A stretch of 64,000 nt of DNA from the sequence record OK272470.1; one strand, given 5' to 3'. Below are positions 11,472-30,232 of this stretch, in pieces. A program made the translations under genes and the position numbers. How positions within the stretch are numbered: position 1 is the first letter of the stretch; every line of letters begins with the position of its first letter. The notes under the pieces were generated by a model that saw nothing but the letters and a program-made list of their open reading frames with translations, was not told where the DNA came from and ran no database searches. The stretch is from Escherichia phage JLBYU50.

Positions 11472-14051
11472 TCAGTGACAACTAGCCCATGAGTTACCAA
11501 CATCGTAACCAGCAGTGAGAGGTACATTAAGATTGTAATACTCACCAGCTTTATTAACAGCAATAGATGCTAATTCTCCAGCACGACTGTAGGCTGTAAA
11601 CCAACCACCTTTCGGAGATTCATGTACGTTAGCCCAAATCTTGCCAGTACGTTTCTCTTCCTCTTCTTTCCAGGTATTAACTTTATCCAAACATTCTTTA
11701 TCAATTTTCTTTTGTTCTTCTGGATCATCAACTTGAGTCCAACCTAAAGATTCTTTAGAGAACCATTTAAAATGCACCAGATCACGAGTTACTTCAAGCT
11801 GTGCTTCATCGTGGTATGCAATCATTTGTTGAACGAATGACTTATTTTTCCAGTCATCAACAAAAAAGTCAACAGCTAATCCTTCTTCTTCGATAAGATC
11901 ATCGTAGATAACCATTGCTCTTTTTGCACAAATAACACCACCACTCTGGAACAGAGAGTTAAGTATTGCGTGTGCAGATCGTGTAGGTACTTTCCTTCCA
12001 TCAATACCAAGAATGTATTTCTTACCTGTTTTAACCCAAAAATCATGCAGACGTTCTTTAAGAAGAGCAAGAGGTTTTGCAGCTTCCCAGAAAGCATCGT
12101 ATACAAGCTGTCCTGTATACATATCACTACCAATGGTTTTTGCTACTTTTGCAGCTTGAGCACCATAAGTAATACCATACTTAACAGATTTAGCAGGGCT
12201 TCGTTCAAACTTACGACCAATAGTATCAGAAATACGTCGAGCCATCATTGTATGAACATCATTAGGTTTTTCCAACAATAGAGCATTACAATATTCGTGT
12301 GGTTCCTGCTCGTACCGCCAACAGTAGTGTGATTCTATTTTTGCCTCAAGAGAATCAAAGTCATAACCAATTTGGAAGTATTTTGGAACTTCTACACCAA
12401 ATAAGTTACGCATTTCATATCCGTACAGAGATGTTACACGTGGGATATTTGCTACTAACCTATGTTTCATACGAGATGTAGCTGCATCACACGTTGCAGC
12501 AGGAGTTGGTATACGACCATCAGCCCTTACTGCTGCCAGATAACCTTTATCGTAATCCTCTTCATCTTCTTCCCAATCAGCACCACCCCCTAAAATAGAG
12601 TTCCTACGGTGTTTATACGTAAGATACTGCACAATCTGCGTAGCATAAGGAAACTTTTCACCTAGTGCTTCCAAGTTAGGACAAATATCTTTCTCTTGCC
12701 CTTTTGTAAAGGAAGGGTTAGTAAGCACTTTAACACCACGACCTTTAGCTTTAGCAATACGATCTCTTAGTTTCCATTCCAAAGTTTCTGGTGTGCACTC
12801 CAGATGATCACATCTGTCCTGGCAGAAGTTAGATGCTAATGTTTGATCAACGTAGTCACGAATAGCTTTCTCCATTTGTGCTTCATCTTTCTTAATCTTA
12901 GTGCCAGATTTAAGAGTGATATCTTTATCTTTATATTCAGATGGACTCCAACCTAAACCAACTAACCAGTTTTTAATATGTGTAGTGTCATCTAAAGTAG
13001 CAGGTACTGTAGGATCACAAATAGGTTCTTCTGCTGGAATAGGGAGTTTAAACTCTTTACCTAATGCAAATAACCACCAACCATCTTCTTTTTGTACAAG
13101 TTCACCAGAATGTTTCTCTGCAAACTTTATCATGTTACTTGAAGGTTCACCATTCTTTTTAAACTGTAGTTTAGGTGGAATGAATGATTTCAAATAACCT
13201 TTAGTAGCAGGTTTGGGAGGTAGTACAGGTTCTGCCTCTAAACGACATGCTTCCATTCGAGCATCCAGATCACGAATATTATCTTCTGCTTGTTTCATAT
13301 TGAAAGCAAAGCCACGGTGCTCTTGACGTGTAATAATATCAGCTACACGTTGTTCTAAGTTAAATGGTTCAGACCACTTATTATAATCACCCCACTCTTC
13401 CATCAAATAACGGAACACTGCGGTGTTAGCTTTGTTATCGTAAATACAGTAATACAGCATATCTGCTGCAAATGTTTTAAATCTTTCAGTTTCAGGAATG
13501 TTTTTTCTAAAATCAATTTTAACATCCCCTCCAGCTTTCTTAGATAACTCTGCCAGACTATGACCACCGAAGCGATCAGGGTTTAGTGTCTTACTTAAGA
13601 TCATAGTATCACAAATTTCAATGTTACTATTACCCCAAGTATTGTACTTAATACTATAGTTGAGTTTAAAAAATAATTTAATTGCCAGTAAGTCGAAGTT
13701 AATGATGTTGTGTCCAACTACTTTGGTAATTTTATAGTTTGAATTACCTTTAAATTTACCTGTTCCATTTACAAAATCAGGAAAATCTTTAAGAGGGAAA
13801 TGGGTATATTCTAAATGCTCATATTCCTCCAGTCGGTATTCATACTTTCCGTCAGTCTCAATATACGGACGACCATCGAAAAGATATTTATCACCATCAT
13901 GGAAAGCAATAATCTCTCCAGTATCATGACTTTCGCACACAATACAGTGCATTGCAAAACTATCTTTTAAACGATATGGACTTGCCAAGTAATCTACACT
14001 TTCGTCATTAAGCAAGTTGTTACTTTCAATGTCGAAAGTAAAAGCTCCCAT
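11472..14051 (-). CDS. DNA polymerase, family A (with 3'-5' exonuclease domain)
   Basis: 859 aa. Exo I motif FDIES at N-terminus. Pol A motif B (KSVKYGITYGAQA) and motif C (YHDEAQLEV). Confidence 0.9.
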   Translation of the reverse strand: MGAFTFDIESNNLLNDESVDYLASPYRLKDSFAMHCIVCESHDTGEIIAFHDGDKYLFDGRPYIETDGKYEYRLEEYEHLEYTHFPLKDFPDFVNGTGKFKGNSNYKITKVVGHNIINFDLLAIKLFFKLNYSIKYNTWGNSNIEICDTMILSKTLNPDRFGGHSLAELSKKAGGDVKIDFRKNIPETERFKTFAADMLYYCIYDNKANTAVFRYLMEEWGDYNKWSEPFNLEQRVADIITRQEHRGFAFNMKQAEDNIRDLDARMEACRLEAEPVLPPKPATKGYLKSFIPPKLQFKKNGEPSSNMIKFAEKHSGELVQKEDGWWLFALGKEFKLPIPAEEPICDPTVPATLDDTTHIKNWLVGLGWSPSEYKDKDITLKSGTKIKKDEAQMEKAIRDYVDQTLASNFCQDRCDHLECTPETLEWKLRDRIAKAKGRGVKVLTNPSFTKGQEKDICPNLEALGEKFPYATQIVQYLTYKHRRNSILGGGADWEEDEEDYDKGYLAAVRADGRIPTPAATCDAATSRMKHRLVANIPRVTSLYGYEMRNLFGVEVPKYFQIGYDFDSLEAKIESHYCWRYEQEPHEYCNALLLEKPNDVHTMMARRISDTIGRKFERSPAKSVKYGITYGAQAAKVAKTIGSDMYTGQLVYDAFWEAAKPLALLKERLHDFWVKTGKKYILGIDGRKVPTRSAHAILNSLFQSGGVICAKRAMVIYDDLIEEEGLAVDFFVDDWKNKSFVQQMIAYHDEAQLEVTRDLVHFKWFSKESLGWTQVDDPEEQKKIDKECLDKVNTWKEEEEKRTGKIWANVHESPKGGWFTAYSRAGELASIAVNKAGEYYNLNVPLTAGYDVGNSWASCH

Positions 14052-14119
14052 TCTCCCTCCTTAAAATATTTCTAAAGTCTTAATTTGTTAATACTGTACC
14101 ATAAATTAATTGTTTTGTA

Positions 14120-14137
14120 AAGGGGCTTTCGCCCCTT
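14120..14137 (-). terminator. Terminator/attenuator-like hairpin upstream of DNA polymerase gene
   Basis: AAGGGGC-TTTC-GCCCCTT, with T-rich tract on the - strand. Confidence 0.45.
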
Positions 14138-14141
14138 CTTG

Positions 14142-14537
14142 TTATTTATTGTCAGCACTTAATTGTACTTTAATAAGGCAATTAGGGACACCATTGGTAT
14201 TTCTCAAGCCTACACGTTCAATTTTAACTGTCCCTGTTAAGCCACTAAAAGTGGAAACAATGTTATTAATGTTTTCATCCTTACTAGCGATATCAAGAAC
14301 AACTTTATCACTAACATTTTTCAACATACGATCTACAAGCTCTCCCACAAAACCACTGGTAGTTTGAATGAGAAGGTATAGACAACCATCCTCAAACCAC
14401 AAATGTTCACCATAAGCATAACCGTATGGTTCTAACTCCGATCCATCTTGAAATTTAAACTTAGCAATAGTTTTCGTATAATCATACCCTAACGCAGAAG
14501 GGGATACCCCATAGAGGATATTTTCGTTGTCTTTCAT
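14142..14537 (-). CDS. Hypothetical protein
   Basis: Start reassigned to internal ATG (MKDNENIL...) preceded by RBS aaggagag. The longer ORF-track version would overlap the primase-helicase 3' end. Confidence 0.4.
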   Translation of the reverse strand: MKDNENILYGVSPSALGYDYTKTIAKFKFQDGSELEPYGYAYGEHLWFEDGCLYLLIQTTSGFVGELVDRMLKNVSDKVVLDIASKDENINNIVSTFSGLTGTVKIERVGLRNTNGVPNCLIKVQLSADNK

Positions 14538-14547
14538 ATTTCTCTCC

Positions 14548-16320
14548 TTAATAAGAACCATCAGGAATATTCTCTGGGTTACTTGTGTATTGATCGTAAT
14601 CGTGAAGTGTAGCTGTTTTAATCTCATAGAAGAAACTACCTGCTGCACCAGTCTCTGAGAACTCACGGTTCTTTAGAATGTAGCAATATGTGCGGTTACG
14701 TTCCATAGGATCTTCAGCTTGTTTATCACGCTCCAGCGCAATTGTGATACCAGCACCTTTAGCAAGGAAGCTACTACCCATTGCATCATCTTCTACAATA
14801 TGTTCATTACTATTGTTAGAAGACTTTTTAACGTGTGAAATTACAACAATGGTAATTGCGTACTCTTTCATAATGCGTTTGAGCCACGTCGCAAGTTCCT
14901 CTTGTTGTGACACGTCCATACCAGAAAGCAAGTCAGAATAAGGGTCGATAACAAGAATGGTTACTCCGAAATAAATAATCATTTCCAGAACCTTCTCTTT
15001 AATCACATCTACGTTAGCTCCACGATCATCACAAACATAGAAACGTGGTGTTCCATCTTCTCGTTCGTAAAAATCACGAATCTTTTCTTCATTATCTTTT
15101 AAAATCTTTTCCTTCTCTTCTTTCGTTTTACGGTGAAGAGGGATATGCAAGAATGAAGACAGTAAGTTACGAGAATACTTCTTATACGTTGCCTCCAAAG
15201 ATAAAATACCAAGAGTATGTTCTGGGTGTGCAAGAATAATGTGCTTCGTAATCTCGTTAACCAACAGTGTTTTACCGATACTTGTTTTTGCAAGTATAAC
15301 AGTAATTTCTTCTTCTACCAAGCCTCCACCTAACATATTAGAAGCAACACGCATGAATGGAGGAAGGGTGATCATTTTAGCTTCCAGGCATTCCAAGGCT
15401 GCTTCATACAGTACGTTAGAAGCGTAAACACCAGCAGGTGTGTACAGTTTAGCTTTGAAAAAGCGATCAATAAAATGATCAATTTTTCCTTCTACTAGTG
15501 CCTGGTTAGGATCTTTAACATCAGTTAGTTCCATCACGTAAACTTTATTACGTGGTAAGATTTTAACACATTTCTCAACTGCTGCACGTCCAGCGTCATC
15601 ATTGTCCATACATAGAACAATCTTTTTAAATTGGTCTAAGAATTTATAACGATGTTGAAGCTGCTTATGCAGAGATGTTTCGCCACAAGTACCAGATACT
15701 ACAGCAGGAACAGGATATTTACCACCCTTGTTATAATCTTTTAGCATCTGTGTTGCAGCCAGCATATCGTGTTCACCACCAACGATTAGAATAGTACCGC
15801 TGTGGTTACGATATTTAAACTCCCCAAAAAGATCACAATCCTTTCCTGTTTCACCGATAGGATGTGAGAAATCTTTTGGATCGATACGTTGTTTATACCC
15901 CGCAATATTGTAATCTTTAGTTGTAGGGTATAGTGTTGAAATTACTTCGCCAGTAGCTTCATCGTACATATAACGTACACCGAAAGGCTTAGAGATATCT
16001 TCACGAATACCGCGATAACCTTTTGGATTAGTTCCAGTGCTGGCTTTTAGTTTATCATGTACTTCTGGATTAAACTCACTACCCAAGATATCCTCCTCTT
16101 CAATTTCTTCGCCGTGTGCATTTAACCATTTTTGATCAGGGATAGTAAAGCCACAAGAAAAACAATGTGCGCCTCGATGGTCTTCATCGGCATCTAAGCC
16201 ATATACCATCAAATTGTTTTGTGATCGATCACGCCCTCCTTTCATACAACGAGGACACCCAGTATGTCCTTCTTGACTTAGATCAATGTTATACCCATAT
16301 TTATTTACAACATAAGACAC
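14548..16320 (-). CDS. Bifunctional DNA primase / replicative helicase (T7 gp4-like)
   Basis: 590 aa. N-terminal Zn-ribbon (CPRC...CFSC), central TOPRIM-like region (MDNDDAG), C-terminal DnaB-like helicase with Walker A (AKTSIGKT) and Walker B-like (LVIDPYSDL). Confidence 0.85.
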   Translation of the reverse strand: MSYVVNKYGYNIDLSQEGHTGCPRCMKGGRDRSQNNLMVYGLDADEDHRGAHCFSCGFTIPDQKWLNAHGEEIEEEDILGSEFNPEVHDKLKASTGTNPKGYRGIREDISKPFGVRYMYDEATGEVISTLYPTTKDYNIAGYKQRIDPKDFSHPIGETGKDCDLFGEFKYRNHSGTILIVGGEHDMLAATQMLKDYNKGGKYPVPAVVSGTCGETSLHKQLQHRYKFLDQFKKIVLCMDNDDAGRAAVEKCVKILPRNKVYVMELTDVKDPNQALVEGKIDHFIDRFFKAKLYTPAGVYASNVLYEAALECLEAKMITLPPFMRVASNMLGGGLVEEEITVILAKTSIGKTLLVNEITKHIILAHPEHTLGILSLEATYKKYSRNLLSSFLHIPLHRKTKEEKEKILKDNEEKIRDFYEREDGTPRFYVCDDRGANVDVIKEKVLEMIIYFGVTILVIDPYSDLLSGMDVSQQEELATWLKRIMKEYAITIVVISHVKKSSNNSNEHIVEDDAMGSSFLAKGAGITIALERDKQAEDPMERNRTYCYILKNREFSETGAAGSFFYEIKTATLHDYDQYTSNPENIPDGSY

Positions 16321-16332
16321 ATGATTCTCCTA

Positions 16333-16602
16333 CTAAAATGATTCGTTTGTCTCCATAATATATTGCATTTCCAAATCTTCCATATGTTTCTTAAATTGGT
16401 AAACAATTTCCGATGGGGAAATATCTATATCAAAAAGTTCTTTTGTACCAGAATAAAATCTAATACCATCAACAATAAGACCACCATAATAATCCCAATC
16501 ACTTTCTCGTGAGAAAGGGTTAGGTTCTTCATAATAGTAATCTACTTCAACAATAATAGGTTCTTTATTATCTTGTTTATACTCAAAATCAAAAGTGTTC
16601 AT
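16333..16602 (-). CDS. Hypothetical protein
   Basis: 89 aa acidic ORF between primase-helicase and glycosyltransferase genes. Confidence 0.4.
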   Translation of the reverse strand: MNTFDFEYKQDNKEPIIVEVDYYYEEPNPFSRESDWDYYGGLIVDGIRFYSGTKELFDIDISPSEIVYQFKKHMEDLEMQYIMETNESF

Positions 16603-17546
16603 TATAAATCCTCGATAAGCAGTCTGCGGGTTTCATTTAAATCATCAATATTGTAGTTATCTCTTACATACTTAGCAAGAGCCAATCCTTTCTCAATACA
16701 AACATCAGGGGATTCGATTAAGTATTCTACAATATCTTTCCACTCTTTAACTGAATCAGCAAAGAAGATTAGATCTTTAAATTCTTCAGTATAGTAGTTC
16801 TCTCGTGGTGAACAAACGAGTGGCAAACCTTTAGCACCAGCTTCAAGAATTTTTAAATTACTTTTGGCATTATTAAAATGATTATTTACTAACGGAGCTA
16901 TGGAGATTTGATGACCATCGTATGCTTCCATATAGCACTCATAAGGACGAATACCTTCATAAACACAATTTGGTTGAATATCTTCTTTAATTTGCAACCA
17001 TTGAGCACTACTTAACTCTTCGTGATCTCTACGAAATCCACATAAAGTTAAATCTTTACCAAAACTAGGAAGAATAGCTAAATCATGTTTATGTGTTTCA
17101 CTTCCCGCCCAAACCAGTGGACTTTTAGAATAACGATCTTTAGTAAGAACAAACTGTCCTTCATCAAAAGGTAGTCCGTTAGGCACAATATGTACATTAT
17201 CATTGTATTGGCTTAATTCAACCTTTAATGCTGGAGTTGTTGTAGTTACAAGATCGCTTCTTTCAAGGAACCATTTTAGGTCATCTCGGATTTGATTTTC
17301 AAATAATCCTTCCAGCATATGCCCTTCAGGAATAATTAAAGAATCATCCAGATCCATTACCAATTTAAACCCAAGTTGTTTAAGAGCCAGGAAACCTGGC
17401 TTTCCACGGGTTGGTACTCCATTGAACACAAAAATATTATGCTTAGGATTAATGGTCAGTTTGCGTTTATATGGCAAAATGATTCTGTGAAAATCACATA
17501 CACTATACTTTTCATTTCCGCGTGTGTCAAGAATAATATTAGGCAT
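16602..17546 (-). CDS. Glycosyltransferase-like protein (paralog 1)
   Basis: 314 aa. Shares long colinear motifs with the next gene (VWAGSETH.HDL; ISIAPLVNNHFNNAKSNLKILEAGAKGLPLVCSP). Pattern resembles GT-B sugar-nucleotide-binding C-terminal domains. Confidence 0.45.
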   Translation of the reverse strand: MPNIILDTRGNEKYSVCDFHRIILPYKRKLTINPKHNIFVFNGVPTRGKPGFLALKQLGFKLVMDLDDSLIIPEGHMLEGLFENQIRDDLKWFLERSDLVTTTTPALKVELSQYNDNVHIVPNGLPFDEGQFVLTKDRYSKSPLVWAGSETHKHDLAILPSFGKDLTLCGFRRDHEELSSAQWLQIKEDIQPNCVYEGIRPYECYMEAYDGHQISIAPLVNNHFNNAKSNLKILEAGAKGLPLVCSPRENYYTEEFKDLIFFADSVKEWKDIVEYLIESPDVCIEKGLALAKYVRDNYNIDDLNETRRLLIEDL

Positions 17547-17557
17547 ATCGCTCCTTA

Positions 17558-18532
17558 TTAAAGACTTTCAATAACTTGACGACGCAGTTCATTGGCATCT
17601 GCAAGATTATAATTAAGACGAACGTGTTCTGCAAGCATCATACCACGATCTTCTGTGTATCTAGGGTTCCTCATTAGCTTGACAACTTCATAATGCCAAG
17701 ATGCTTTAGAGTCTGCATAGATAACAGCCTTTGCATCTACCGGATTGAAGTACGGCAGCACAGGAGAACAGATAATAGGAAGACCCTTTGCACCTGCTTC
17801 CAAAATCTTCAAATTGCTTTTACAGTTGTTGAAGTCATTATCTACCAGAGGAGCAATTGCAATACTGTGACCGTCATACACAGACATATACTCACCTAAA
17901 TTTTTAATAGCTGGTTTATACTGTGCATTTGGAATTTTACGTTTTACTTTAACCCACTCCGCAGTAGTTAGATACTGACTATTATTTCCAACAGGTGCAG
18001 AAGGATACACTTCATACCCTGCAATTGTCAATAGTGTATCATCAAATGTATTAGCTACAAGAGATAAATCAGGCTCATGGCTTGCTCCTCCAGCCCAAAC
18101 AATAGGCGTGTCAGAATAACGGTCTTTTGTTAAAGTAAATTGACCTTCGTCGTAAGGCAGTGCGTTTCTAATAACGACAACATTACGATTTAAATGACGA
18201 ATTTTGTAAGCTAGGTATTCTGTTGTTACTGTAACAACATCTGCTAACTTAACCATCTCTACAATAGTCTTTGAGTGATTAGTAAATACGCCAGCCATAT
18301 AATGTTCAGGATTAAGCGAATAAAAATCATCTAAATCAACAATAATCTTAACACCTTGTGCCTTCAGGCGTTTAACTTCGTCTGATCCACGAGAATACAC
18401 TCTATTAAAAACTAAAACGTCTTTCTTAGGCTTAAACGTATTTCCCGCAAATGGCATTACAATACGATGGTAATCACAACCACTGCCTAACTTATTATCA
18501 CACTTAAGTACAGGAGTATTAGGATTTACCAT
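17558..18532 (-). CDS. Glycosyltransferase-like protein (paralog 2)
   Basis: Start set at internal ATG (MVNPNTPVLKCDN...) to match paralog 1 N-terminus and avoid overlap. Conserved block IAIAPLVDNDFNNCKSNLKILEAGAKGLPIICSP. Confidence 0.45.
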   Translation of the reverse strand: MVNPNTPVLKCDNKLGSGCDYHRIVMPFAGNTFKPKKDVLVFNRVYSRGSDEVKRLKAQGVKIIVDLDDFYSLNPEHYMAGVFTNHSKTIVEMVKLADVVTVTTEYLAYKIRHLNRNVVVIRNALPYDEGQFTLTKDRYSDTPIVWAGGASHEPDLSLVANTFDDTLLTIAGYEVYPSAPVGNNSQYLTTAEWVKVKRKIPNAQYKPAIKNLGEYMSVYDGHSIAIAPLVDNDFNNCKSNLKILEAGAKGLPIICSPVLPYFNPVDAKAVIYADSKASWHYEVVKLMRNPRYTEDRGMMLAEHVRLNYNLADANELRRQVIESL

Positions 18533-19205
18533 ATTTTTGAGCCTCCTCATAAGAGATAAAAGTTTTACCATTGCGAAGATCCTCCAGTGATTGTTTATAT
18601 TGTTCCCAGTTTACACCAATCCCCTGTTCTTTCTCTTCTTTTGACAGATTCGCAAAAGGTAAAGGATTATCTCCAAACACATCGTCAGGATGGATAAACG
18701 CCATAATTCGAATAGGACATGGTACGCCGTGAATACCTCGATTCAAACCTGCCAGTGGAACACGCTGAATCCACTCTGCATCCTCATATCCATAACCGTG
18801 AGTGTATGAGCGGAAATAGCCAGCTTTCTCAATAACTGCACGGGAATACATACCAAACTGGCACATGCCTAGCTCCCAAATAACCACTTCTCCTTCAATA
18901 CCTTTTACTTTATCTTTAAAATATTCAGGCATACCAAAGAAATCCCAACCGTTTTCCTTCGCCTGTTTTACAAAGTATGTTTCCCAACCTGGTACAACCG
19001 GATAGCAATCATCATCAAAAATAAACCAGTAGTCATACCCTTCATCATAAAACTTTTTCATCAGTTCATTACGGGCATATGCAACACCTTTTCGTTCACG
19101 ATCATACTGTACAACAAAAGTAGCATTAGGATCAGTTACAAGATAATCTTTAAGAGGACGCTTACCTACAGTAATAACACCAACACCAATTTTTGTATTT
19201 TCCAA
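18519..19205 (-). CDS. Glycosyltransferase family 2-like protein (GT-A fold)
   Basis: 228 aa. N-terminal GVGVITVGKR nucleotide-binding-like strand and DxD-type motif (WFIFDDDCYP). Confidence 0.5.
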   Translation of the reverse strand: MENTKIGVGVITVGKRPLKDYLVTDPNATFVVQYDRERKGVAYARNELMKKFYDEGYDYWFIFDDDCYPVVPGWETYFVKQAKENGWDFFGMPEYFKDKVKGIEGEVVIWELGMCQFGMYSRAVIEKAGYFRSYTHGYGYEDAEWIQRVPLAGLNRGIHGVPCPIRIMAFIHPDDVFGDNPLPFANLSKEEKEQGIGVNWEQYKQSLEDLRNGKTFISYEEAQKYGKS

Positions 19206-19214
19206 AATAACTCC

Positions 19215-19778
19215 TTAAATAATTTTATTCATGTCTTGACAATGTAAAAGGTGTGAAACAGCTTTTCTAGGATCATCATTACCTAAACGGTATGTGTGAA
19301 ATAAATATAACCCACGTAGTAAACCTAGCCTTTTATTGTTAGCGTGCAATGCTTTAGAGAAAATTATATCAAACTGTATTGATCTTTCCTCAAAAGGAAT
19401 TTCATTCCACAGACTCTTACGAAAGAGAAGAAAGAATCCTGCTAAGATAGCATCTGTAGGTACTTCCTCTATTGAGTTTCCCCATTCTAGATGTGCTCTT
19501 TTTGCAATCTCAATGTGGTGTAATATATTCGGATCTTCACTTCTTTCATTATTAAATAATTGATATGTTGATCCCAATCTGTTACAAGATGCACCAAGAA
19601 CATCAAAATCAGGATTTGAACGGACTATTGATTCCAGCCAAGCAGGTTGTTCTGGAAGAAGAAACATTGTATCAATGTCTCTTAGGCAAATCCAACTATC
19701 TTCTGGTAAGACACTTATTGTGTCATTGATACCTTTTCCAATATCTCCAGAAAGATAGGGAGTTATGTGAAATATCAT
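19215..19778 (-). CDS. Hypothetical protein, possible fourth glycosyltransferase-like gene
   Basis: 187 aa in the same operon as the GT genes. Weak DxD-like motif (CLRDIDTMF). Assignment tentative. Confidence 0.35.
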   Translation of the reverse strand: MIFHITPYLSGDIGKGINDTISVLPEDSWICLRDIDTMFLLPEQPAWLESIVRSNPDFDVLGASCNRLGSTYQLFNNERSEDPNILHHIEIAKRAHLEWGNSIEEVPTDAILAGFFLLFRKSLWNEIPFEERSIQFDIIFSKALHANNKRLGLLRGLYLFHTYRLGNDDPRKAVSHLLHCQDMNKII

Positions 19779-19835
19779 ACTCCCTCCGTATTATTACTTT
19801 AGCATTTTTAGACTAAAAAGTCCAAATGGTTTTAC

Positions 19836-20030
19836 CTATTGATTACGTTTTGCGAGTTCCATTTGGATAGCTAAACTGTGATCTCGTGCTTCCATATACT
19901 CTTTATATGTTTCATTAAGATGATCACGACAAACATCACGCAGTTTAATCAGTTTATCTGTAGGGATACCACTAAGATCATCCCAAGATTTTACAACTTC
20001 ACCAGTATCATTGATCCCAATGGTTTTCAT
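19836..20030 (-). CDS. Hypothetical small protein
   Basis: 64 aa ORF. No motif recognised. Confidence 0.35.
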   Translation of the reverse strand: MKTIGINDTGEVVKSWDDLSGIPTDKLIKLRDVCRDHLNETYKEYMEARDHSLAIQMELAKRNQ

Positions 20031-20238
20031 CTACAACCTCCTTAATTGCTACAGCACAGTTTTTGCAGATACACTGCCCTTTACCTTTAGAAATCTGGAT
20101 GTAAGGTTCATTTTCATTTTCGCCCTTACGTGAGTCATATATTACAGAATTGAAGCACACAACGCAAATATTTTTTAATATTGTATACTTATCAACTTTC
20201 TTTTTTGTTTTAAAGTTAACTTCAATAACATCAGCCAT
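20008..20238 (-). CDS. Small Zn-ribbon protein (start uncertain)
   Basis: Two CxxC pairs (CVVCFN...CICKNC). Start placed at internal ATG forming an ATGA overlap with the upstream stop; the longer form to 20286 is possible. Confidence 0.35.
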   Translation of the reverse strand: MADVIEVNFKTKKKVDKYTILKNICVVCFNSVIYDSRKGENENEPYIQISKGKGQCICKNCAVAIKEVVDENHWDQ

Positions 20239-20516
20239 CAGTGTAACACTCCCAGTATGTTGCTTTGTGACATAACCATAGAACATTCAACATTATCGTG
20301 ACTACGTGAAAAACGTTCCCAAACATCTTCATCGACTCGTAAAGCTATACAAGGATAGACGTTATCATTGATCATTTCAATTGAATAAACATCTACATTG
20401 TCTTCGTCTTCGATGAACATCATTGCAAACTGTTCTAAATGTTTCCTAATGTAATGTACATCCTCTTCTGTAAGACCAATAACAAGATAACTTGCAACGA
20501 TAACGCCCTCTTTCAT
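20238..20516 (-). CDS. Hypothetical protein
   Basis: 92 aa acidic ORF. No motif recognised. Confidence 0.4.
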   Translation of the reverse strand: MKEGVIVASYLVIGLTEEDVHYIRKHLEQFAMMFIEDEDNVDVYSIEMINDNVYPCIALRVDEDVWERFSRSHDNVECSMVMSQSNILGVLH

Positions 20517-20526
20517 CTATATCTCC

Positions 20527-21036
20527 TTAGCGATAGAATTGATGTTCTTTGTAGCGGTACACTAGAACCATATCTTTTTCCCAGTGTGCTCTTATTGTAG
20601 ATTTTTTAAAGTATAATGCTCCTTTTGTAATATCTAATGCAATTCGTAATTCTGGAAAATGCGTATCGAGATAAAGTAGACGTTCTGCTATAGCCTTAGC
20701 TTCCTTCCACTTATCACGTTCCATAACGTTGAATGTCTTTGTGTAAGAGAATTGTCCTTTTTGAAACAAAACTTCTTTTATAGTATCAGGGAAATATGAA
20801 TCTCTAGCCCTATTCAATACTACATTACCAACAGCAGACATACCGCGCTTTCCTTGATTACGACTTTCTGCATAGATTGCACAAGCTAATAGATTTTCTT
20901 TACTATCACGCTTTGTACACTTGTGAACTACTTTAGCAGTTTTTACGTTTGCAGCTTCGGCTTGCGCCACAACAGGTGTAAATGTAAAAGCAGTTAAGGA
21001 TAGTAACGCAATTGCGACAAAGGTTTTTATTGACAA
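20527..21036 (-). CDS. Secreted cell-wall hydrolase, SleB-like (Hydrolase_2 family)
   Basis: 169 aa. N-terminal signal peptide (MSIKTFVAIALLSLTAFTFTPVVAQA). Motif ACAIYAESRNQGKRGMSAVGNVVLNRA resembles the SleB/CwlJ catalytic domain. Confidence 0.6.
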   Translation of the reverse strand: MSIKTFVAIALLSLTAFTFTPVVAQAEAANVKTAKVVHKCTKRDSKENLLACAIYAESRNQGKRGMSAVGNVVLNRARDSYFPDTIKEVLFQKGQFSYTKTFNVMERDKWKEAKAIAERLLYLDTHFPELRIALDITKGALYFKKSTIRAHWEKDMVLVYRYKEHQFYR

Positions 21037-21128
21037 ACTTGCCTCCTATTTTGTTAAACGAACTTTTATTGTAACACAGAAGAGGCTGTTTTGCAAGTGG
21101 AGGGGGATTATCCCCCTCTTAGACTCTG

Positions 21129-21731
21129 TTAGATATTGTAAACCTTTGTATGAGTTACTACACCATCTTCTACAAAATCAACACGTTCTTGATCCGTAAC
21201 TAGTGCAGACAATACTTTAAATTTAATTTTTACACGTTCAAAAGCTGGTTGACCATCTTTAAGATAATTATGTTCAGTTGTCACTGTCTTGTTTACAAAA
21301 TCAACTTTTGCTTTACCGTTTTCGCGTAAATGGAATGTTTTTCCTGCTTTATACACAATTTCAACATTGCCTTCGAGAGTAATTCCTTCAAAAAGTTCAC
21401 CCTCTTCTTCATTTTCTTCACTTTTGAACAGACGACGAAACTCTTCCATATCAAGATAAACAACATCTTCAGAATAACTATCAGTAAGGTATGTCTTACC
21501 ATCCATTAACCCGAAATATTGCCAGATCGCAGAATAAACATCACTGGTTGATCCAAGGGTTTCTCTGAGTTTAGTTCCACGGATTACTTCATAAACTTCA
21601 AAATTGAAACCAGACTGCAAAGCATTAAACAGTACATCACTAACTTCTAAAGCATAATCTTCATTGTTGTCAATATCCACAAGAAAATTACCGCTACGAA
21701 TAAGTTTTTGACCTTCTAAAGTAATACCCAT
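21129..21731 (-). CDS. Hypothetical protein
   Basis: 200 aa ORF upstream of the SleB-like gene in the Ter-like cluster. No motif recognised. Confidence 0.45.
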   Translation of the reverse strand: MGITLEGQKLIRSGNFLVDIDNNEDYALEVSDVLFNALQSGFNFEVYEVIRGTKLRETLGSTSDVYSAIWQYFGLMDGKTYLTDSYSEDVVYLDMEEFRRLFKSEENEEEGELFEGITLEGNVEIVYKAGKTFHLRENGKAKVDFVNKTVTTEHNYLKDGQPAFERVKIKFKVLSALVTDQERVDFVEDGVVTHTKVYNI

Positions 21732-21783
21732 TGTTTTCTCCTCTTTTATTTAAAATATGCGCCCCGAAGGGCGCTATGATTTA

Positions 21784-22380
21784 TTACTCGAACCAATCGT
21801 CGCCAGCGCCAAACGCTTTAACTACATCGTAAATGTCAAGCCCAGCTTTACCTACACCATATGCTTTCAGTTTCCATTCGTTATCTTCTCGCACCAGGGA
21901 GGCAACGTGGCAAATGGTATTACCTGCAAGTTCTGGAGCCAAGAAGTCAAAATCCAGCAGTTCAACGTTACGTTCATCATCGAAGATTTTAAGGAAACCT
22001 TCGGTAGCGTGACCAAGGCGTTTCTTACCCGTTTCGTCATCAATAGTAATTACGAATGCAATTTCCTGTGCTTCAGCAGAGATATTATCCAGTGTAACAT
22101 CAATCTGCTCCATTTGTCCTACACCATCACGAACATCTTCACCTGCAAAAGTAGAACGTTCAGGATCAAATTTCTGCGCGTAGCACACCAGGTGACGAGG
22201 AGACAACAGTTCCGGCAGACCAGATGCATTGTGTCGGCAAATCAGAGCACTAACATCCAGATCCAGTTTTTCGTTAGATTTCCAAGAGAATTCCAGACGA
22301 ATGCGTTTCAGTGCTGGTGCAATCTTTTTCAGAGAAACTTTTTCGCTAGAACCTTTTTTCAGGGAAATTTTCTGAGTCAT
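21784..22380 (-). CDS. terD: TerD-family protein (tellurite-resistance TerD/TerE/TerZ-like)
   Basis: 198 aa. N-terminal duplicated ISLKKG...VSLKK, IRLEFSWKS and LDLDVSALI blocks match the TerD fold signature. Acidic Ca-binding-like patch (TIDDETGKK). Confidence 0.7.
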   Translation of the reverse strand: MTQKISLKKGSSEKVSLKKIAPALKRIRLEFSWKSNEKLDLDVSALICRHNASGLPELLSPRHLVCYAQKFDPERSTFAGEDVRDGVGQMEQIDVTLDNISAEAQEIAFVITIDDETGKKRLGHATEGFLKIFDDERNVELLDFDFLAPELAGNTICHVASLVREDNEWKLKAYGVGKAGLDIYDVVKAFGAGDDWFE

Positions 22381-22452
22381 AATTTATTATCTCCTTTGTT
22401 GTTAATTTACGTTGTCTATTTTACTAATCTTTTCTACAAAGTCAAGCGTTTT

Positions 22453-23247
22453 TTACGCTTTTGCTCCAAATTTTTTAACCCACTCACCAAACTCTTCGGA
22501 TAACAGTTTATCGTAAAGTTCTTCATCAGACAAGGACAAATCTGCAATACCGATAAAATCAACATTATCGTATTCTTTTGCCAAGTCTTTCAGGAATTTA
22601 AAGTTTGCATTACCTACACCAACCATAAACCAGTAAACAGGTGTATTGCGGTGTTTGTTCAGTAAGCTACGTACTGCTGAAGTATCCATGTTCTCCCCGT
22701 CAGTTTGGAAGAAAATCATTGCAGGAGTACGATCAACTTGTGCATCAGTATCTACAACCTGTTCTACAACAGTACGTGTTACTTCTACAAGTTCTTTTTT
22801 ACCAGTTAGTTTAGCAAGGAAACCTTTAGCTGGAACTTCTTCATACTCAACGACTTCGCGTGTAATATTTTTCATAGGTACACTACCGAAGTATGTATCA
22901 TAAATGTCTTGCATTACTGGAGCATAAGCTGTACCACCATTGATGCAAACATTAGACATACAAGAGCCGACATAATCATCATATACATCAGCCGTTGCAG
23001 GAGGCAGTTCAAAAGAAGAACTATTGAAAGCCCACATGTCAATCTGCGCATTATCATCAAACTTCATACCAAACGGCAGCAGCTTACCTACAAAATCACT
23101 AACAGTGCCATCACGATATAGCTCACACATACTACCCGAAATATCTAAGGCGCTACCGACACGAAGAACAACATCGTTAATCTTTTTCTTACGCAGAGAT
23201 ACAGTAAGAGTTTCTTGACGTTTTTTAAGACTGATTTTATTGGACAT
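22453..23247 (-). CDS. von Willebrand factor A (vWA) domain protein, TerY-like
   Basis: 264 aa. N-terminal ISLKK motif then MIDAS-like DxSxS (VGSALDISGSM) and vWA beta-strands (MIFFQTDGEN; VYWFMVGVG). Confidence 0.6.
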   Translation of the reverse strand: MSNKISLKKRQETLTVSLRKKKINDVVLRVGSALDISGSMCELYRDGTVSDFVGKLLPFGMKFDDNAQIDMWAFNSSSFELPPATADVYDDYVGSCMSNVCINGGTAYAPVMQDIYDTYFGSVPMKNITREVVEYEEVPAKGFLAKLTGKKELVEVTRTVVEQVVDTDAQVDRTPAMIFFQTDGENMDTSAVRSLLNKHRNTPVYWFMVGVGNANFKFLKDLAKEYDNVDFIGIADLSLSDEELYDKLLSEEFGEWVKKFGAKA

Positions 23248-23248
23248 A

Positions 23249-23518
23249 TTATTTCTCCTTTCTGACTGTAATGTTAGTAACTTCTAAATCCACTTCTACC
23301 ACTTCTGTATCATATAAAATACAGTTAAGTTGACCTCTTTGTGAACCGTTCAGACACATTGCTTGGTTTGTATTAACCTTAATAAACACTAAGTTTATGA
23401 ACGTATCTAAACCAGAATCTTGATAGGCAACATAATATACAAATGTATCACCTGTGTCAAGTTCTCCAAAACATTTAGGTTCATCTGATTTGTCGTCTTT
23501 GATATTAAATTTAAGCAC
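23249..23518 (-). CDS. Hypothetical protein
   Basis: 89 aa ORF in the Ter-like cluster. Confidence 0.4.
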   Translation of the reverse strand: MLKFNIKDDKSDEPKCFGELDTGDTFVYYVAYQDSGLDTFINLVFIKVNTNQAMCLNGSQRGQLNCILYDTEVVEVDLEVTNITVRKEK

Positions 23519-24074: not shown

Positions 24075-24274
24075 TATACACCAACCTTAAGATCAATTAT
24101 AGCCAAAGTGGTTTCAGAGTGTGTTTGCTCGTCTACAGGTGCAGTCATGTGATAATACAAAAAATCTTCGGCATCATACCAATCTGACTCTTGACCTTGT
24201 TTCCAACCATCAATGAAAGCATCTTCCATAATTGTTTGTAACTCTTCACGAGTTAAGTGAATATCTTTACTCAT
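24074..24274 (-). CDS. Hypothetical small acidic protein
   Basis: 66 aa ORF, ATGA-type coupling to neighbours. Confidence 0.35.
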   Translation of the reverse strand: MSKDIHLTREELQTIMEDAFIDGWKQGQESDWYDAEDFLYYHMTAPVDEQTHSETTLAIIDLKVGV

Positions 24275-24507
24275 TACACATTCTCCTCTTTTACCAATTC
24301 CATCGTTGAACTATCAAAACCATCTTTAGAAGAATAGGTATAGACAGAACGTAGTTCTCGCAGGACAGTGAATACATTGGGATCATCTAACCAAGCATCC
24401 TGGAGGAGAACATAACGATCTTCATTGTCGTACTGGACAGCAATCATAGAACCAGACAGTTTGTAAATTTTAATATTCATAATATATTTCTCCTTAAAGT
24501 AGACCAC
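24274..24507 (-). CDS. Hypothetical small protein (start uncertain)
   Basis: 77 aa ORF overlapping the TelA-like gene 3' end; an internal start is possible. Confidence 0.35.
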   Translation of the reverse strand: MVYFKEKYIMNIKIYKLSGSMIAVQYDNEDRYVLLQDAWLDDPNVFTVLRELRSVYTYSSKDGFDSSTMELVKEENV

Positions 24508-25597
24508 GTTTAACAGTTTGAATCATACCATCTTCAAGAGATTGCACTTCTTGAATGTAATCAATACGCGCAGCACGGGCTTCAGTGTTGATTCGGTTAG
24601 TTTCTTCCAACATTTTAACTAAGTTTTCTTGATCGCGACGTAATGTCTCAATATCCAATACTTGACGATTAGCAAGTTGTGTAGCTTCAATTTGGTTTTG
24701 TGCCGCCAGATCACTACCCATTGCAATAGCAGCATTAAATTCATTCAGCACATTGTTCTGTGTATCGGCTGCTTTCTTCTGGCGTAGACTTTCAATATAC
24801 ATAGAAAAGTTTGCAGAGTAAGCAGGGATAACATTATTCACAATATTACGGGCTGATCGCATCAAACTTGCAGATACTTTCTGCATACTTTGTACACGTG
24901 GCCCCATCTGAACACACAGTAAGCGTAGGGCTTTCAGGTCTGCAATACGAATTTCAAGCAGATCCATAGTATCACGAGTACGTTGACGCTCTTCTACCTC
25001 ATTTTCAGGCAGTGTATTAAGGCGAACTTCTTCTTTTTCATACGTAGCTGTTAGAAGCTCTATATCTCTGTTTAAGCTAAGAGCATATTTGGCAATAGCC
25101 TCTTCTAAACGTTGCAGATATCGTAAAGAATCTTCTTCTTTTTTCAAGTCTGTTTGGAGTGTCTTTACCAAACCTTCAATACGATTATTGATGGTGTCAA
25201 ATTCTCCAAACAAATCTTCTTTCATACCTAATACTTTCTTAACTAGTTTACCTAAGCCTTTAGATTGCTTAATAGAGTTAGGATCAAGTTGCTTTGCTTG
25301 CTTAATAAGTGCAGTTAAACGTTCACTCATTTCATCCCCCTGAGATGAACGCTGGTGTTTAAGCACTTCAGCATTAAGGTTACGAAGAGTAAGTCCTGCA
25401 TCAGCACCAACTTGTTCAATCTCTTCACGAGACATTGGAGGCAGCATTTGTACAGGTCGTGCAACAGCAGGGGCATATACAGGGCTTGCATCCATAGCAC
25501 TTGGAGCAAATAAAGACTTACTTTTTTCTGTTGTTGCCGTGAATACACTCATTTCAGACGGTTTGCTTTTTACGGCACTGATAAAAGGACTGGACAT
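24494..25597 (-). CDS. telA: TelA-like toxic-anion-resistance family protein
   Basis: 367 aa, largely coiled-coil. C-terminal block QVLDIETLRRDQENLVKMLEE...AARIDYIQE resembles the conserved TelA/KlaB region. Confidence 0.55.
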   Translation of the reverse strand: MSSPFISAVKSKPSEMSVFTATTEKSKSLFAPSAMDASPVYAPAVARPVQMLPPMSREEIEQVGADAGLTLRNLNAEVLKHQRSSQGDEMSERLTALIKQAKQLDPNSIKQSKGLGKLVKKVLGMKEDLFGEFDTINNRIEGLVKTLQTDLKKEEDSLRYLQRLEEAIAKYALSLNRDIELLTATYEKEEVRLNTLPENEVEERQRTRDTMDLLEIRIADLKALRLLCVQMGPRVQSMQKVSASLMRSARNIVNNVIPAYSANFSMYIESLRQKKAADTQNNVLNEFNAAIAMGSDLAAQNQIEATQLANRQVLDIETLRRDQENLVKMLEETNRINTEARAARIDYIQEVQSLEDGMIQTVKRGLL

Positions 25598-25665
25598 TCA
25601 ATTTCCTCCATATTCTTTAGTAGATGGTGATACCTCTGTACCACCATCATAACACAAATTAAGTA

Positions 25666-26517: not shown

Positions 26518-26552
26518 CTGTTTCTCCTTCTTATTTAATCTGTATTAAATTA

Positions 26553-27336: not shown

Positions 27337-27375
27337 CAGATCACCTCAATAAAGCCCCCGAAGGGGCTTAATGAA

Positions 27376-28353
27376 TTAAGCAACAGCCTGGTCTTCTTTT
27401 TCAGGGAAGATTAAACTTGCAATAACACCCAACCCAAGAGTACCTAACACAATATACATACTGATCGTCGGATCAATGTGTGCTGGTAGGAAACTCACTT
27501 TTGCGTGCAGAGTTTCTGCAAACGGGTGATACATCAGTTTTACACCCACAAATACCAGGACTACGATAACTGCTTTCTCCAGATGAACCAAATACTTCAG
27601 TGCAACACTAAGAACAAAGAACAGAGCGCGTAAACCTAAGATTGCACAGAGCATCGAAGAGAACACCAGCAGAGGTTCTTGTGTCACTGCAATTACTGCT
27701 GGAACAGAGTCTACTGCAAAGATTACGTCAACCATTTCCATTACAAACACACAAACCAGAGCCGGAGTTGCTACACGAACACCATTTTTGATTGTGAAGA
27801 ACTTCTCACCATCCATCTGATCAGATACAGGGAACAGCTTACGAACAATGCGAGTAGCCCAGTGTTTAGAGTAATCAACTTCTGCATCATTATCTCCAGC
27901 GAATACCATTTTAGCCGCACAGAAAAGGATGACAGCACCGAAGAAGATATTAACATACCAGCCCAAACTCAACAAGTAAGTACCTACTGCTACAAACACA
28001 CCTCGGAAGACAATCGCACCTGCAATACCCCAAAGTAGAATCTTGTGTTGCAAGTGTGTGCTTTTAATACCAAAACTTGCGAATACTGCCACAAATACTA
28101 CTAAGTTATCTACAGAAAGAGATTTCTCCAACACATACCCACTCAAGAACAAACTCGCAAAATCAGCACCGTGTTGGAAGTATACAAAACCATAGTAGGC
28201 TAATGATACCCCAATCCAGAAAATTGACCAACCAACTGCCGATTTAAATGAAATCTCTTTGTTTTCTCTGTGTCCAAAGAAATCAATACAAATCGACAAC
28301 ACTAAAATACCCACTAAAACAACCACATCAATAATTGGGAAACCCAGTTGCAT
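27376..28353 (-). CDS. terC: TerC-family integral membrane protein
   Basis: 325 aa polytopic membrane protein. Signature motif EKSLSVDN and several further TM helices. Terminator-like hairpin upstream at 28372-28390. Confidence 0.8.
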   Translation of the reverse strand: MQLGFPIIDVVVLVGILVLSICIDFFGHRENKEISFKSAVGWSIFWIGVSLAYYGFVYFQHGADFASLFLSGYVLEKSLSVDNLVVFVAVFASFGIKSTHLQHKILLWGIAGAIVFRGVFVAVGTYLLSLGWYVNIFFGAVILFCAAKMVFAGDNDAEVDYSKHWATRIVRKLFPVSDQMDGEKFFTIKNGVRVATPALVCVFVMEMVDVIFAVDSVPAVIAVTQEPLLVFSSMLCAILGLRALFFVLSVALKYLVHLEKAVIVVLVFVGVKLMYHPFAETLHAKVSFLPAHIDPTISMYIVLGTLGLGVIASLIFPEKEDQAVA

Positions 28354-28908: not shown

Positions 28909-29286
28909 TTATTTCAGTTTGTAAACAATTACATTTAAACCTTTGTTTACTAGAGTTTCTTCGATCATAAGTTTTACAATATTCCAAGAACCTCCAGCCA
29001 AACCACAACCAAGCATTGGTAAACCTACAATTTTACCGCCTGAAGATACAACATCGTCTCCCATACTATCTAGCGCATTGTAGATAGCTTCATAATTCAG
29101 GTCACGCTTACCTTCCTCACGACGACTATAACCATATTGTCCATATAAATTATAAATTGTCAAATTGTTTTCTGTATATTTGGTAAACGTACCTAATTTT
29201 TTATAATCACCACGTTTAGTGGCACAATCTGCTTTAAACGCACCAGGCCACTTGCTTTTAATTTTTGGTGCAATACCACTACCCAT
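28909..29286 (-). CDS. Hypothetical protein with weak macro-domain-like Gly-rich motifs
   Basis: 125 aa. MGSGIAPKI and GCGLAGGSW loosely resemble the phosphate-binding loops of macro (ADP-ribose-binding) domains. Shorter than a canonical macro domain; tentative. Confidence 0.3.
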   Translation of the reverse strand: MGSGIAPKIKSKWPGAFKADCATKRGDYKKLGTFTKYTENNLTIYNLYGQYGYSRREEGKRDLNYEAIYNALDSMGDDVVSSGGKIVGLPMLGCGLAGGSWNIVKLMIEETLVNKGLNVIVYKLK

Positions 29287-30232
29287 AGTGCAAAAACAGT
29301 TGAAGATGCTCTTCTCCTGACTTATGGTCTACAGCTACAACATAACGATTACCGCTAAACAAACCTTGTGCTGTCATACCGTCAATATCGGTATCTGCCG
29401 AAACATCTCCTGTACGATCTACACCGTTAACTTTCAGGAGTTTAACTTCTTTTGCAGCATAGCGGTGTTCAGTAATACTGATACCCATTAATGCAAGTGC
29501 ATCAGAGAATTTGTCATTAGGGTAACGGTTAAGTTCTTCTACTAGTGACTGAACAATATCAAAGTTCAAGTCCACGGAAAGATTATAAAGCGTTTCAAAA
29601 TCTGGTAAAAAGGCTTTGTTCTCCAGATTTTTAGCCAGATAGTCATCCATAGTAGCTTTAGGTAGTTTCTTATAGCTAAAGCTGTAGAAAATACGGCTAG
29701 GACGATTACGCAAAAATTCTGATACATAACCATCATTTTTAGTCAATACAAACAGCTTGTCATAGCCACCAACACCATCCAGCAGGGTAAGCAAACCATC
29801 CTGTGCATCTTTTTCAGCATACAGTTTATCAAATTCATCGATCATAATCATCACAGGTTGTGTGATTTTAGACATAAAATTGATAAAGCCTTCACCATTA
29901 AAAGCACTACCGATAGAAATAGTAGGAATACCCATTTCACGAAGAGCAGAAGATAGCATTTTAGCTTGCAAAGTTTTACCGCTACCCTTCGTACCCTCAA
30001 GGAGAACACCTGTGTTTTTACCTTTGCGGCTAAGGAACGTCTTGATAATACGTTCTGATTTATCATCAGTATCACCGTATGTTACTGAAGGGACTTCCAT
30101 ATCGTTTTTAGGATACAGGAAGAACTCACCACTTTGAGTAACACCTACACCAAAAGTTCCTGCTGGAATTTCTTCAATATCTGTACCAGACTTCTGACGC
30201 AGGAAGATTTGATTGCCGAATACTGTAAACAT
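29279..30232 (-). CDS. AAA-family ATPase (paralog A)
   Basis: 317 aa. Walker A GTKGSGKT, Walker B MIMIDEFDK, classical-AAA second region LLTLLDG and NRPSR. About 45% identical by eye to 44210-45337. Confidence 0.7.
   Translation of the reverse strand: MFTVFGNQIFLRQKSGTDIEEIPAGTFGVGVTQSGEFFLYPKNDMEVPSVTYGDTDDKSERIIKTFLSRKGKNTGVLLEGTKGSGKTLQAKMLSSALREMGIPTISIGSAFNGEGFINFMSKITQPVMIMIDEFDKLYAEKDAQDGLLTLLDGVGGYDKLFVLTKNDGYVSEFLRNRPSRIFYSFSYKKLPKATMDDYLAKNLENKAFLPDFETLYNLSVDLNFDIVQSLVEELNRYPNDKFSDALALMGISITEHRYAAKEVKLLKVNGVDRTGDVSADTDIDGMTAQGLFSGNRYVVAVDHKSGEEHLQLFLHYG

Follow-up and report, generated by a model that had tools for sequence, protein, structure and literature searches.

What do four glycosyltransferases (GTs) encoded beside the replication genes of a large lytic coliphage act upon? 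The question is raised by Escherichia phage JLBYU50 (sequence record OK272470.1), of which one stretch of 64,000 nucleotides, hereafter the window, has been analysed. Positions 16602-19778 of this window hold four GT open reading frames (ORFs) back to back, all on the minus strand, and the initial annotation had suggested that they serve DNA hypermodification or else a modification of the host envelope. The four genes most probably constitute a glycan-building cassette of soluble cytoplasmic enzymes, fed in part by dTDP-L-rhamnose made by the phage itself, with an acceptor other than DNA. In its full form, which we favour tentatively, the proposal is that the cassette assembles a rhamnose-containing oligosaccharide in the cytoplasm on virion proteins. 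The genes and the DNA-glycosylation hypothesis are already present in databases and in the literature, so that the finding as such is not new, and our literature search found no functional study of the orthologous proteins gp163-gp166 of phage phi92 or of their other orthologues. In the following, GT1 to GT4 denote the four genes of the cassette and their products, and the enzyme families that bear similar names are always written as family GT2 or family GT4.

The cassette is read in the order GT4, GT3, GT2, GT1 (coordinates in Table 1). A Shine-Dalgarno sequence precedes every start, and the genes are tightly packed or overlapping, the end of GT3 and the start of GT2 sharing 14 nt. An alternative in-frame ATG at 18571 would give a GT2 of 337 aa, and the start at 18532 is favoured because GT1 aligns with this longer form only from residue 17 onward. 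The GT1 stop codon is overlapped by the ATG of a small acidic ORF of 89 aa, which is probably translationally coupled to GT1; a homologue of this ORF is annotated in phage PVP-SE1 without annotated similarity to GT genes, and the ORF is therefore probably not specific to the cassette. Downstream of it follow the primase/helicase and DNA polymerase genes. As all these genes are read from the minus strand, the cassette lies transcriptionally upstream of the replication genes and not directly downstream, as had initially been described. A consensus scan of positions 14000-22500 for promoters and terminators returned no more sites than chance gives. The initial view of four consecutive GT genes that form one functional unit is nevertheless judged to be right.

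GT1 and GT2 are paralogous GT-B enzymes. They are 41% identical (BLASTP E 1e-83), have in common the block KSNLKILEAGAKGLP (GT1, NNHFNNAKSN; GT2, DNDFNNCKSN), and both match phrog_7162 'glycosyltransferase' at E <=1e-145 (GT2, E 3.9e-149). The Pfam family Glyco_trans_1_2 is passed by GT1 (28.4 bits, cut-off 25), and GT2 stays below the cut-off with 14.7 bits. The AlphaFold model of GT1 (pLDDT 94.5) has the two Rossmann domains of a GT-B fold, with its closest solved relatives in family GT4. Invariant in the family alignment of GT1 are H20-R21, D65/D67/D68, N123, H152, D155, K228-S229, K232 and E235. Of the canonical E-x7-E motif only the second glutamate, E235, is thus invariant; the residue eight positions upstream is not glutamate, and K228, S229 and K232 are invariant instead. 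The structural neighbours of GT1 include HepE (23.1), PglA (22.8), BshA (22.7), PglH (22.5) and PimA (22.0), and sucrose-phosphate synthase, the trehalose synthase TreT, GlgM and WaaG-type enzymes of family GT4 are also found at the top of the list. A comparison of the GT-B family profile with the sequences of the PDB was of no help, TreT being matched at E 0.011.

GT3 and GT4 belong to another fold class, GT-A. The GT3 model (pLDDT 87.4) has a GT-A fold with the DxD motif, here the invariant F63-D64-D65-D66, accompanied by conserved R16 and Y138-G-x-E141-D142. Structurally, GT3 resembles GlfT2, TarP/TarS and RmlT, and a Foldseek comparison with viral models returned generic or unnamed proteins like those of families GT2 and GT25, and nothing else. 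GT4, which had initially been described as a fourth possible transferase, matches phrog_14179 (E 5.5e-113) and has no Pfam match of its own. An exhaustive profile search collected 1193 representative homologues of it, many of them 370-650 aa long, with the domain fused to TOD1/MUCI70-like, family GT2 or Methyltransf_24 domains. The invariant residues of this family (D34-x-D36, N66-R67, H161-x-Y163-R164 and H176) include a DxD motif, and the equivalent domain of one homologue (P0136) passes Pfam Glyco_tranf_2_3 with 42.9 bits (cut-off 27), for which reasons GT4 is regarded as a genuine family GT2-like enzyme. In a profile-profile comparison the DxD regions of GT3 and GT4 align, but not significantly; the profiles of both families gave only noise against PDB sequences, and none of the four cassette proteins has a match in NCBIfam. 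Membrane segments are absent from all four (highest 19-residue hydropathy 0.83-1.21). Their isoelectric points, 5.2-5.6 for three of the proteins and 8.2 for GT2, are weakly informative on DNA binding. The assignment of two GT-B paralogues with a shared motif block and of a DxD-bearing GT-A enzyme at 18519-19205, made in the initial annotation, thus holds, and its fourth candidate can be given a fold class.

The cassette is strongly conserved in its lineage. From 14500 to 21100 the window is 98.5-99.2% identical in nucleotide sequence to over 50 Justusliebigvirus phages of Escherichia (subfamily Stephanstirmvirinae), among them vB_Eco_J-01 (hereafter J-01), Nernie, PaulScherrer (Bas60) and phi92. 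The notes in the phi92 record describe gp166 as 'glycosyl-transferase fold', gp165 as 'polypeptide N-acetylgalactosaminyltransferase 2 fold', gp164 as 'GT-B fold' and gp163 as 'trehalose-synthase TRET fold', and in PaulScherrer the orthologues of GT1 and GT2 are annotated as 'putative disaccharide synthase'. In the genus Phapecoctavirus all four genes recur, with gene order and neighbours unchanged, and the proteins are 66-76% identical. Between the cassette and these orthologues, the proportion of nonsynonymous differences (pN) is 0.16-0.24 and that of synonymous differences (pS) 0.65-0.84, synonymous sites being saturated; the corresponding values for the primase/helicase are 0.20 and 0.74. 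Judged by these figures, purifying selection on the cassette is as strong as on the primase/helicase, as expected of real genes. In tblastn searches, GT1 and GT3 were found in Justusliebigvirus, Phapecoctavirus and a few Klebsiella phages, at least one of which (phi1_175008) also belongs to the Stephanstirmvirinae, and the Vequintavirus group was not among the matches listed. Cassette-like GT genes are also carried by three records labelled 'Campylobacter phage', A145, A110a and B15 (MG065645, MG065689 and MG065650; genomes of ~146-151 kb), with 99% identity to the coliphage cassette in A145 and A110a and 76% in B15. These records are probably Justusliebigvirus or Phapecoctavirus phages with a mislabelled host, or contaminants, and were set aside.

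A source of activated sugar is encoded by relatives of JLBYU50. J-01, which is 99% identical, has a complete rmlB-rmlA-rmlC-rmlD set (100630-103891), all four genes being strong Pfam passes, next to nrdAB, which encode the aerobic ribonucleotide reductase, and thioredoxin, at a position that falls outside the window. A full dTDP-rhamnose pathway has been reported in both cassette-bearing genera, together with the suggestion that hydroxymethylated bases are rhamnosylated (Olsen 2020, PMC7552041). Since rml and cassette occur together in the same genera, a link between the cassette and rhamnose is plausible. One Phapecoctavirus, ESCO37, is viable with neither rmlA nor rmlB (PMC10269720).

Is DNA the acceptor, as Olsen (2020) proposed? 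In that case the GTs would transfer rhamnose or hexoses to hydroxylated bases of the phage DNA, at some sites if not at all of them, and several features of the locus speak for it. The cassette adjoins the primase/helicase and DNA polymerase genes; in a metagenomic relative with a GT-B of only 39% identity, the genes still run GT-A, GT-B, small ORF, primase/helicase, PolA; and the rml genes sit among genes of nucleotide metabolism. There is also a precedent in RB69 and DLP3, where several GTs and a phage sugar-nucleotide pathway act on DNA (PMC13326640). At the level of the enzymes, GT3 weakly matches the PHROG of the T-even beta-glucosyl-HMC-alpha-glucosyltransferase, and weak matches to Pfam TAGT were obtained for 17 of the 18 members of the GT3 family (best E 6.8e-5). 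TAGT stands for TET-associated GT, a family whose members glycosylate DNA. The TAGT matches, however, all miss the threshold and are limited to ~60 residues about the DxD motif; GT3 itself reaches 23.3 bits against PF20691, whose cut-off is 27.5, over residues 16-75, and is not counted as a member. None of the scanned neighbours of the cassette is TET-like, so an association of the 5mYOX/TET type is not seen. GT3 also has the R...DDD...ED pattern that is common to DNA-modifying GT-A enzymes, but the same pattern is equally found in enzymes of families GT2, GT7 and GT27 (bioRxiv 10.1101/2023.12.21.572611). Among the GT-B matches of GT1, the T4 alpha- and beta-glucosyltransferases (AGT and BGT) and the HY126 DNA arabinosyltransferase rank 16th, 28th and 38th, and the modelled fold is closer to family GT4 enzymes than to DNA glucosyltransferases; the affinity to the T4 enzymes that the initial annotation wished to see compared does not extend, in sequence or in structure, beyond the shared GT-B fold.

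The behaviour of the DNA argues more directly against such a modification. When exposed in vivo to restriction-modification systems of types I, II and III, the phi92-like phages Bas60-62 proved 'exceptionally susceptible', 'despite ... a putative dTDP glycosylation machinery' (Maffei 2021, PMC8594841). In a collection typed by restriction fragment length polymorphism, HincII cuts DNA from Phapecoctavirus phages and from ESCO8, ESCO9 and ESCO32, which are Justusliebigvirus, whereas only three phages are refractory, ESCO47 and ESCO58, which are named as Tevenvirinae, and ESCO10 (PMC10269720), which we take for the third genome of the Tevenvirinae in that collection. Across the cassette ESCO9 is 98.7% identical to the window, which contains 52 HincII sites. 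The window itself avoids palindromic restriction sites of 6 bp to an extreme degree: 24 of the 64 palindromic hexamers are absent from it, compared with 1.5% of the non-palindromic hexamers, and the median ratio of observed to expected counts (O/E) is 0.35 for the former and 0.93 for the latter (Mann-Whitney p 1e-15). The absent sites include those of HindIII (~21 expected), BamHI, PstI, XhoI, SacI, NcoI, KpnI and SalI; CCGG and GGCC are likewise depleted, but GATC is not. The same avoidance is seen in 50 kb of J-01 (49400-99399), whereas in a 50-kb control from T4, whose DNA contains glucosylated hydroxymethylcytosine, 5 of the 64 palindromes are absent and the median O/E is 0.64. A lineage shielded by a bulky base modification would not be expected to purge its restriction sites so thoroughly. 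An enzyme that would create the hydroxylated base is not evident either. The annotations of the complete J-01 genome and of phi92 98613-148612 contain neither a ThyA-type hydroxymethylase or hydroxylase nor an enzyme of the TET/JBP kind, and no base-hydroxylating enzyme was found in the neighbourhood scanned in the window, though hidden Markov models were not applied to every small ORF; the only thymidylate synthase of the genus is of the ThyX type (Pfam Thy1) and is not a homologue of ThyA. Restriction phenotypes, HincII cutting, site avoidance, the lack of a hydroxylase and the fold of the GTs together contradict the initial idea of DNA hypermodification to evade restriction, as far as a global modification is meant. 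Global hypermodification is very unlikely in this phage, as is the proposed glycosylation of hydroxylated bases at some of the sites. A modification that is sparse or gives no protection may exist.

The favoured reading, a glycan on virion proteins, follows a different course. The cassette, operon-like in its arrangement, would supply two family GT2-like GT-A enzymes followed by two family GT4-like GT-B paralogues, classes that are typically inverting and typically retaining, respectively. Expressed alongside the early/middle replication genes, the four enzymes would act in sequence and produce a short chain of at most about four sugar residues, from donors that include dTDP-L-rhamnose, made in the relatives by their own RmlBACD encoded outside the window. 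The acceptor, the most conjectural element of the scheme, would be one or more virion proteins of the phage, to which the sugars would be attached in the cytoplasm, either ahead of assembly or while it proceeds. Those mycobacteriophages and giant viruses that have glycosylated virions, with sugar-nucleotide pathways and GTs of their own, proceed in this way. As a statement on the two groups as a whole, namely that phi92-like and phAPEC8-like coliphages decorate their virion proteins with a rhamnose oligosaccharide by means of the cassette and their own dTDP-rhamnose pathway, the idea is possible but doubtful.

The contexts of distant homologues provide the most useful hints at the virion. A GT3-like GT-A and a GT-B form a conserved two-gene module in such homologues. 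In a metagenomic phage of ~36 kb (L011), this pair lies directly upstream of the series terS-terL-portal-protease-capsid, on the same strand, and the replication genes run divergently from it; its GT-A is matched by the A2 profile with 65 bits, and its GT-B is 32% identical. At other loci a GT-B homologue immediately follows terL (L027) or lies a few kb upstream of terS, which is adjoined by an acetyltransferase and a family GT2 gene (L025). In L018, a homologue of GT4 is situated between terL and the portal and capsid genes, together with a family GT2 gene, a polysaccharide deacetylase and two Methyltransf_24 genes, with a UDP-galactopyranose mutase upstream. This layout strongly resembles that of phage Corndog, in which an O-methyltransferase and GTs between portal and protease are suspected of modifying the capsid (PMC4351075). 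In L019 and L013 the homologues are part of large clusters for glycan synthesis, in which aminotransferase, epimerase, radical-SAM and Stealth genes occur with additional GTs; the L019 cluster, of more than 12 genes, is headed by a homologue of GT4. Homology (71 bits) also links the GT3 family with Pacc40, a mycobacteriophage of cluster F1, namely with the GT-A domain of its gp98, whose gene occupies the locus where phage Che8 carries its GTs. The Che8 enzymes are reported to glycosylate the capsid and the tail tube (PMC11256854, citing Freeman 2023). A chromosomal GT-B homologue was also observed in Burkholderia dolosa (contig JAIMDN010000082, 3025-8440; locus L008): it is 35% identical, keeps the CxYHR, DLDD and KSNLKxLEAGAKGL motifs and directly follows a gene for an intimin/invasin-like adhesin and its Ig-like continuation, a context that hints at a protein acceptor and adhesin glycosylation, or at acquisition from a phage.

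Several observations weigh against a virion glycan. We know of no report of glycans on phi92-type virions, and the cassette belongs to the replication module, at a great distance from the late genes for structural proteins. No significant similarity to Che8 gp108-110 or Corndog gp36-38 emerged from hhalign, BLASTP or hmmsearch (the lowest E was 0.004, in a database of 15 sequences), direct comparisons that included Corndog gp35 were likewise not significant, and the link to verified virion glycosylation is for this reason indirect; a place of the cassette enzymes among the virion-glycosylating GTs of actinobacteriophages was considered and rejected, their homology being to the Pacc40 gp98 type only. 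The Ser/Asn-rich C-terminal tail of the sheath protein, a possible site of O-glycosylation, was rejected as a candidate as well, since it does not track with the cassette: it is present in J-01 and in Klebsiella phage 05F01, it is missing from the cassette-bearing phAPEC8, and Vequintavirus and Seunavirus have other tails. The neighbourhood of packaging genes is not specific either, because DNA-modifying GTs are also found beside terminase genes (bioRxiv 10.1101/2023.12.21.572611). The fold matches, finally, are generic, and the best GT-B neighbours use lipid-linked, polysaccharide and small-molecule acceptors.

These acceptors lead to two further explanations. In the main rival, which we consider somewhat unlikely, the soluble GTs would modify lipid-linked or lipid A-core intermediates on the cytoplasmic side of the inner membrane, i.e., those of the lipopolysaccharide (LPS) core, the enterobacterial common antigen (ECA), NGR or the capsule, and the added rhamnose or hexose would mask the phage's own glycan receptors, resulting in less superinfection or less loss of progeny on debris. 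PglA, PglH, PimA, HepE and the WaaG-type family GT4 enzymes among the neighbours of GT1 act on lipid-linked or polysaccharide acceptors, and the resemblance of GT3 to GlfT2, TarP/TarS and RmlT agrees with this, as does the placement of the cassette with early/middle genes. The receptors of these phages are indeed surface glycans, LPS core glucose and ECA/NGR (PMC8594841, PMC11990801), and a phage-borne rml pathway would free the phage from dependence on the O-serotype of the host. Against such remodelling it can be said that these phages are strictly lytic and that one cycle offers little time for replacing the outer-membrane glycans already present, that the cassette is without a flippase, a Gtr-like membrane protein or a polyprenol-phosphate transferase, and that homologues elsewhere cluster with head and packaging genes and not with genes of lysis or lysogeny. 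Glucosylation of the O-antigen of the classical Gtr type (GtrABC) is excluded, the cassette being without membrane components and the phage group lytic; of the envelope alternative in the initial annotation, remodelling by soluble enzymes thus survives as a rival and the Gtr form, which the lack of membrane segments contradicts, does not.

Alternatively, the product could be a soluble glycoside or a non-virion macromolecule, whether a disaccharide or compatible solute, a nucleoside-like metabolite connected with the Ter module described below, or a host protein or RNA glycosylated during takeover; this we regard as quite improbable. Sucrose-phosphate synthase, TreT, GlgM and BshA use small-molecule acceptors, and the annotations of phi92 and PaulScherrer ('putative disaccharide synthase') are in agreement with such a role. 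A disaccharide, though, needs fewer than four different GTs, the methyltransferases, aminotransferases and deacetylases with which the homologues cluster are typical of complex glycoconjugates, and no gene for synthesis of an acceptor is evident in the cassette. A tellurite-resistance-type (Ter) module with genes for TerD, a vWA-TerF-like protein, TelA and TerC stands immediately upstream of the cassette in the direction of transcription, with unannotated ORFs interspersed, and has been counted in favour of a soluble product, although a link between this module and the GTs is speculative.

Other features of the window were recorded alongside (Table 1). The early/middle block also encodes, three small ORFs upstream of the cassette and away from the position of the Rz-like spanin gene annotated in J-01, a SleB-like cell-wall hydrolase (Pfam Hydrolase_2) that begins with a signal-like sequence. 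The DNA polymerase, of 859 aa, is intein-less as in J-01; its orthologue in PaulScherrer, 3315 nt long, is annotated with an intein, and that of phi92 is probably intein-bearing as well because it has the same length. Compared with J-01 and phi92, the window lacks 2,460 bp at 29301/29302, a clean deletion that removes a phosphoribosyltransferase (PRTase)-like gene, a hydrolase gene and two small genes and truncates a Tk.4-like macro-domain/phosphatase gene and an AAA ATPase gene. This deletion could be a natural variant or an assembly artefact.

Table 1. Genes of the glycosyltransferase cassette and other features of the window.
Feature	Coordinates	Strand	Description
GT4	19215..19778	-	187 aa, first cassette gene, phi92 gp166 orthologue, small family GT2-like GT-A
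GT3	18519..19205	-	228 aa, TTG start, phi92 gp165 orthologue, GT-A
GT2	17558..18532	-	324 aa, phi92 gp164 orthologue, GT-B paralogue
GT1	16602..17546	-	314 aa, phi92 gp163 orthologue, GT-B paralogue, family GT4-like fold
Acidic ORF	16333..16602	-	89 aa, phi92 gp162 orthologue, phrog_4240 (E 8e-35)
Primase/helicase	14548..16320	-	downstream of the acidic ORF
DNA polymerase	11472..14051	-	downstream of primase/helicase
Cell-wall hydrolase	20527..21036		
TerD	21784..22380	-	tellurite-resistance-type Ter module (21784-28353)
vWA-TerF-like	22453..23247	-	Ter module
TelA	24494..25597	-	Ter module
TerC membrane protein	27376..28353	-	Ter module
Macro-domain/phosphatase remnant	28909..29286		Tk.4-like, truncated by the deletion
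AAA ATPase	29279..30232		truncated by the deletion

The host ranges of Justusliebigvirus and Phapecoctavirus phages are very broad, and cocktails for therapy and biocontrol make use of these phages, which gives the identity of the acceptor a practical side. Here, two broad-host-range lytic genera keep eight glycan-related genes, four for GTs and four of the rml pathway, under strong selection, and yet their DNA behaves as if unmodified. If the glycan is indeed carried by the virion, the trait would extend beyond the actinobacteriophages, for the first time to a phage with a Gram-negative host, with relevance to immune shielding and possibly also to the recognition of therapy phages by antibodies and to stability in the gut. 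Should the envelope be modified instead, the strategy would be an unusual one for a strictly lytic phage. The locus also advises caution in annotation: GTs beside replication genes are easily labelled 'DNA hypermodification', and in this case restriction phenotypes and site avoidance argue otherwise.

Compared with the known systems, the cassette shares some traits with each. With the DNA glycosylation of T-even phages, RB69 and DLP3 it has in common several GTs, GT-B enzymes among them, a sugar-nucleotide pathway, the setting of a large lytic coliphage and the vicinity of genes of DNA metabolism; those systems, however, possess a ThyA-homologous base hydroxylase or hydroxymethylase that is lacking here, where the DNA is restriction-sensitive and strongly depleted of sites (PMC13326640). 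GT3 is similar to the TET/5mYOX-associated GTs in its GT-A fold and R...DDD...ED pattern, but neither a TET/JBP dioxygenase nor a partnered C5-methyltransferase accompanies it in the neighbourhood or in annotated relatives. The glycosylation of capsids and fibrils in giant viruses (e.g., by PBCV-1 A064R) is similar at the level of the fold only, a comparison made partly from background knowledge. The virion glycosylation of Che8 and Corndog is alike in its phage-encoded sets of soluble GTs and in the occurrence of GT1 and GT4 homologues in head modules together with O-methyltransferases, whereas the cassette described here is part of a replication module in a phage of a Gram-negative host. Phi92 gp163-gp166 and their orthologues in Justusliebigvirus and Phapecoctavirus are the very same genes as those of JLBYU50 and differ from them in nothing of substance.

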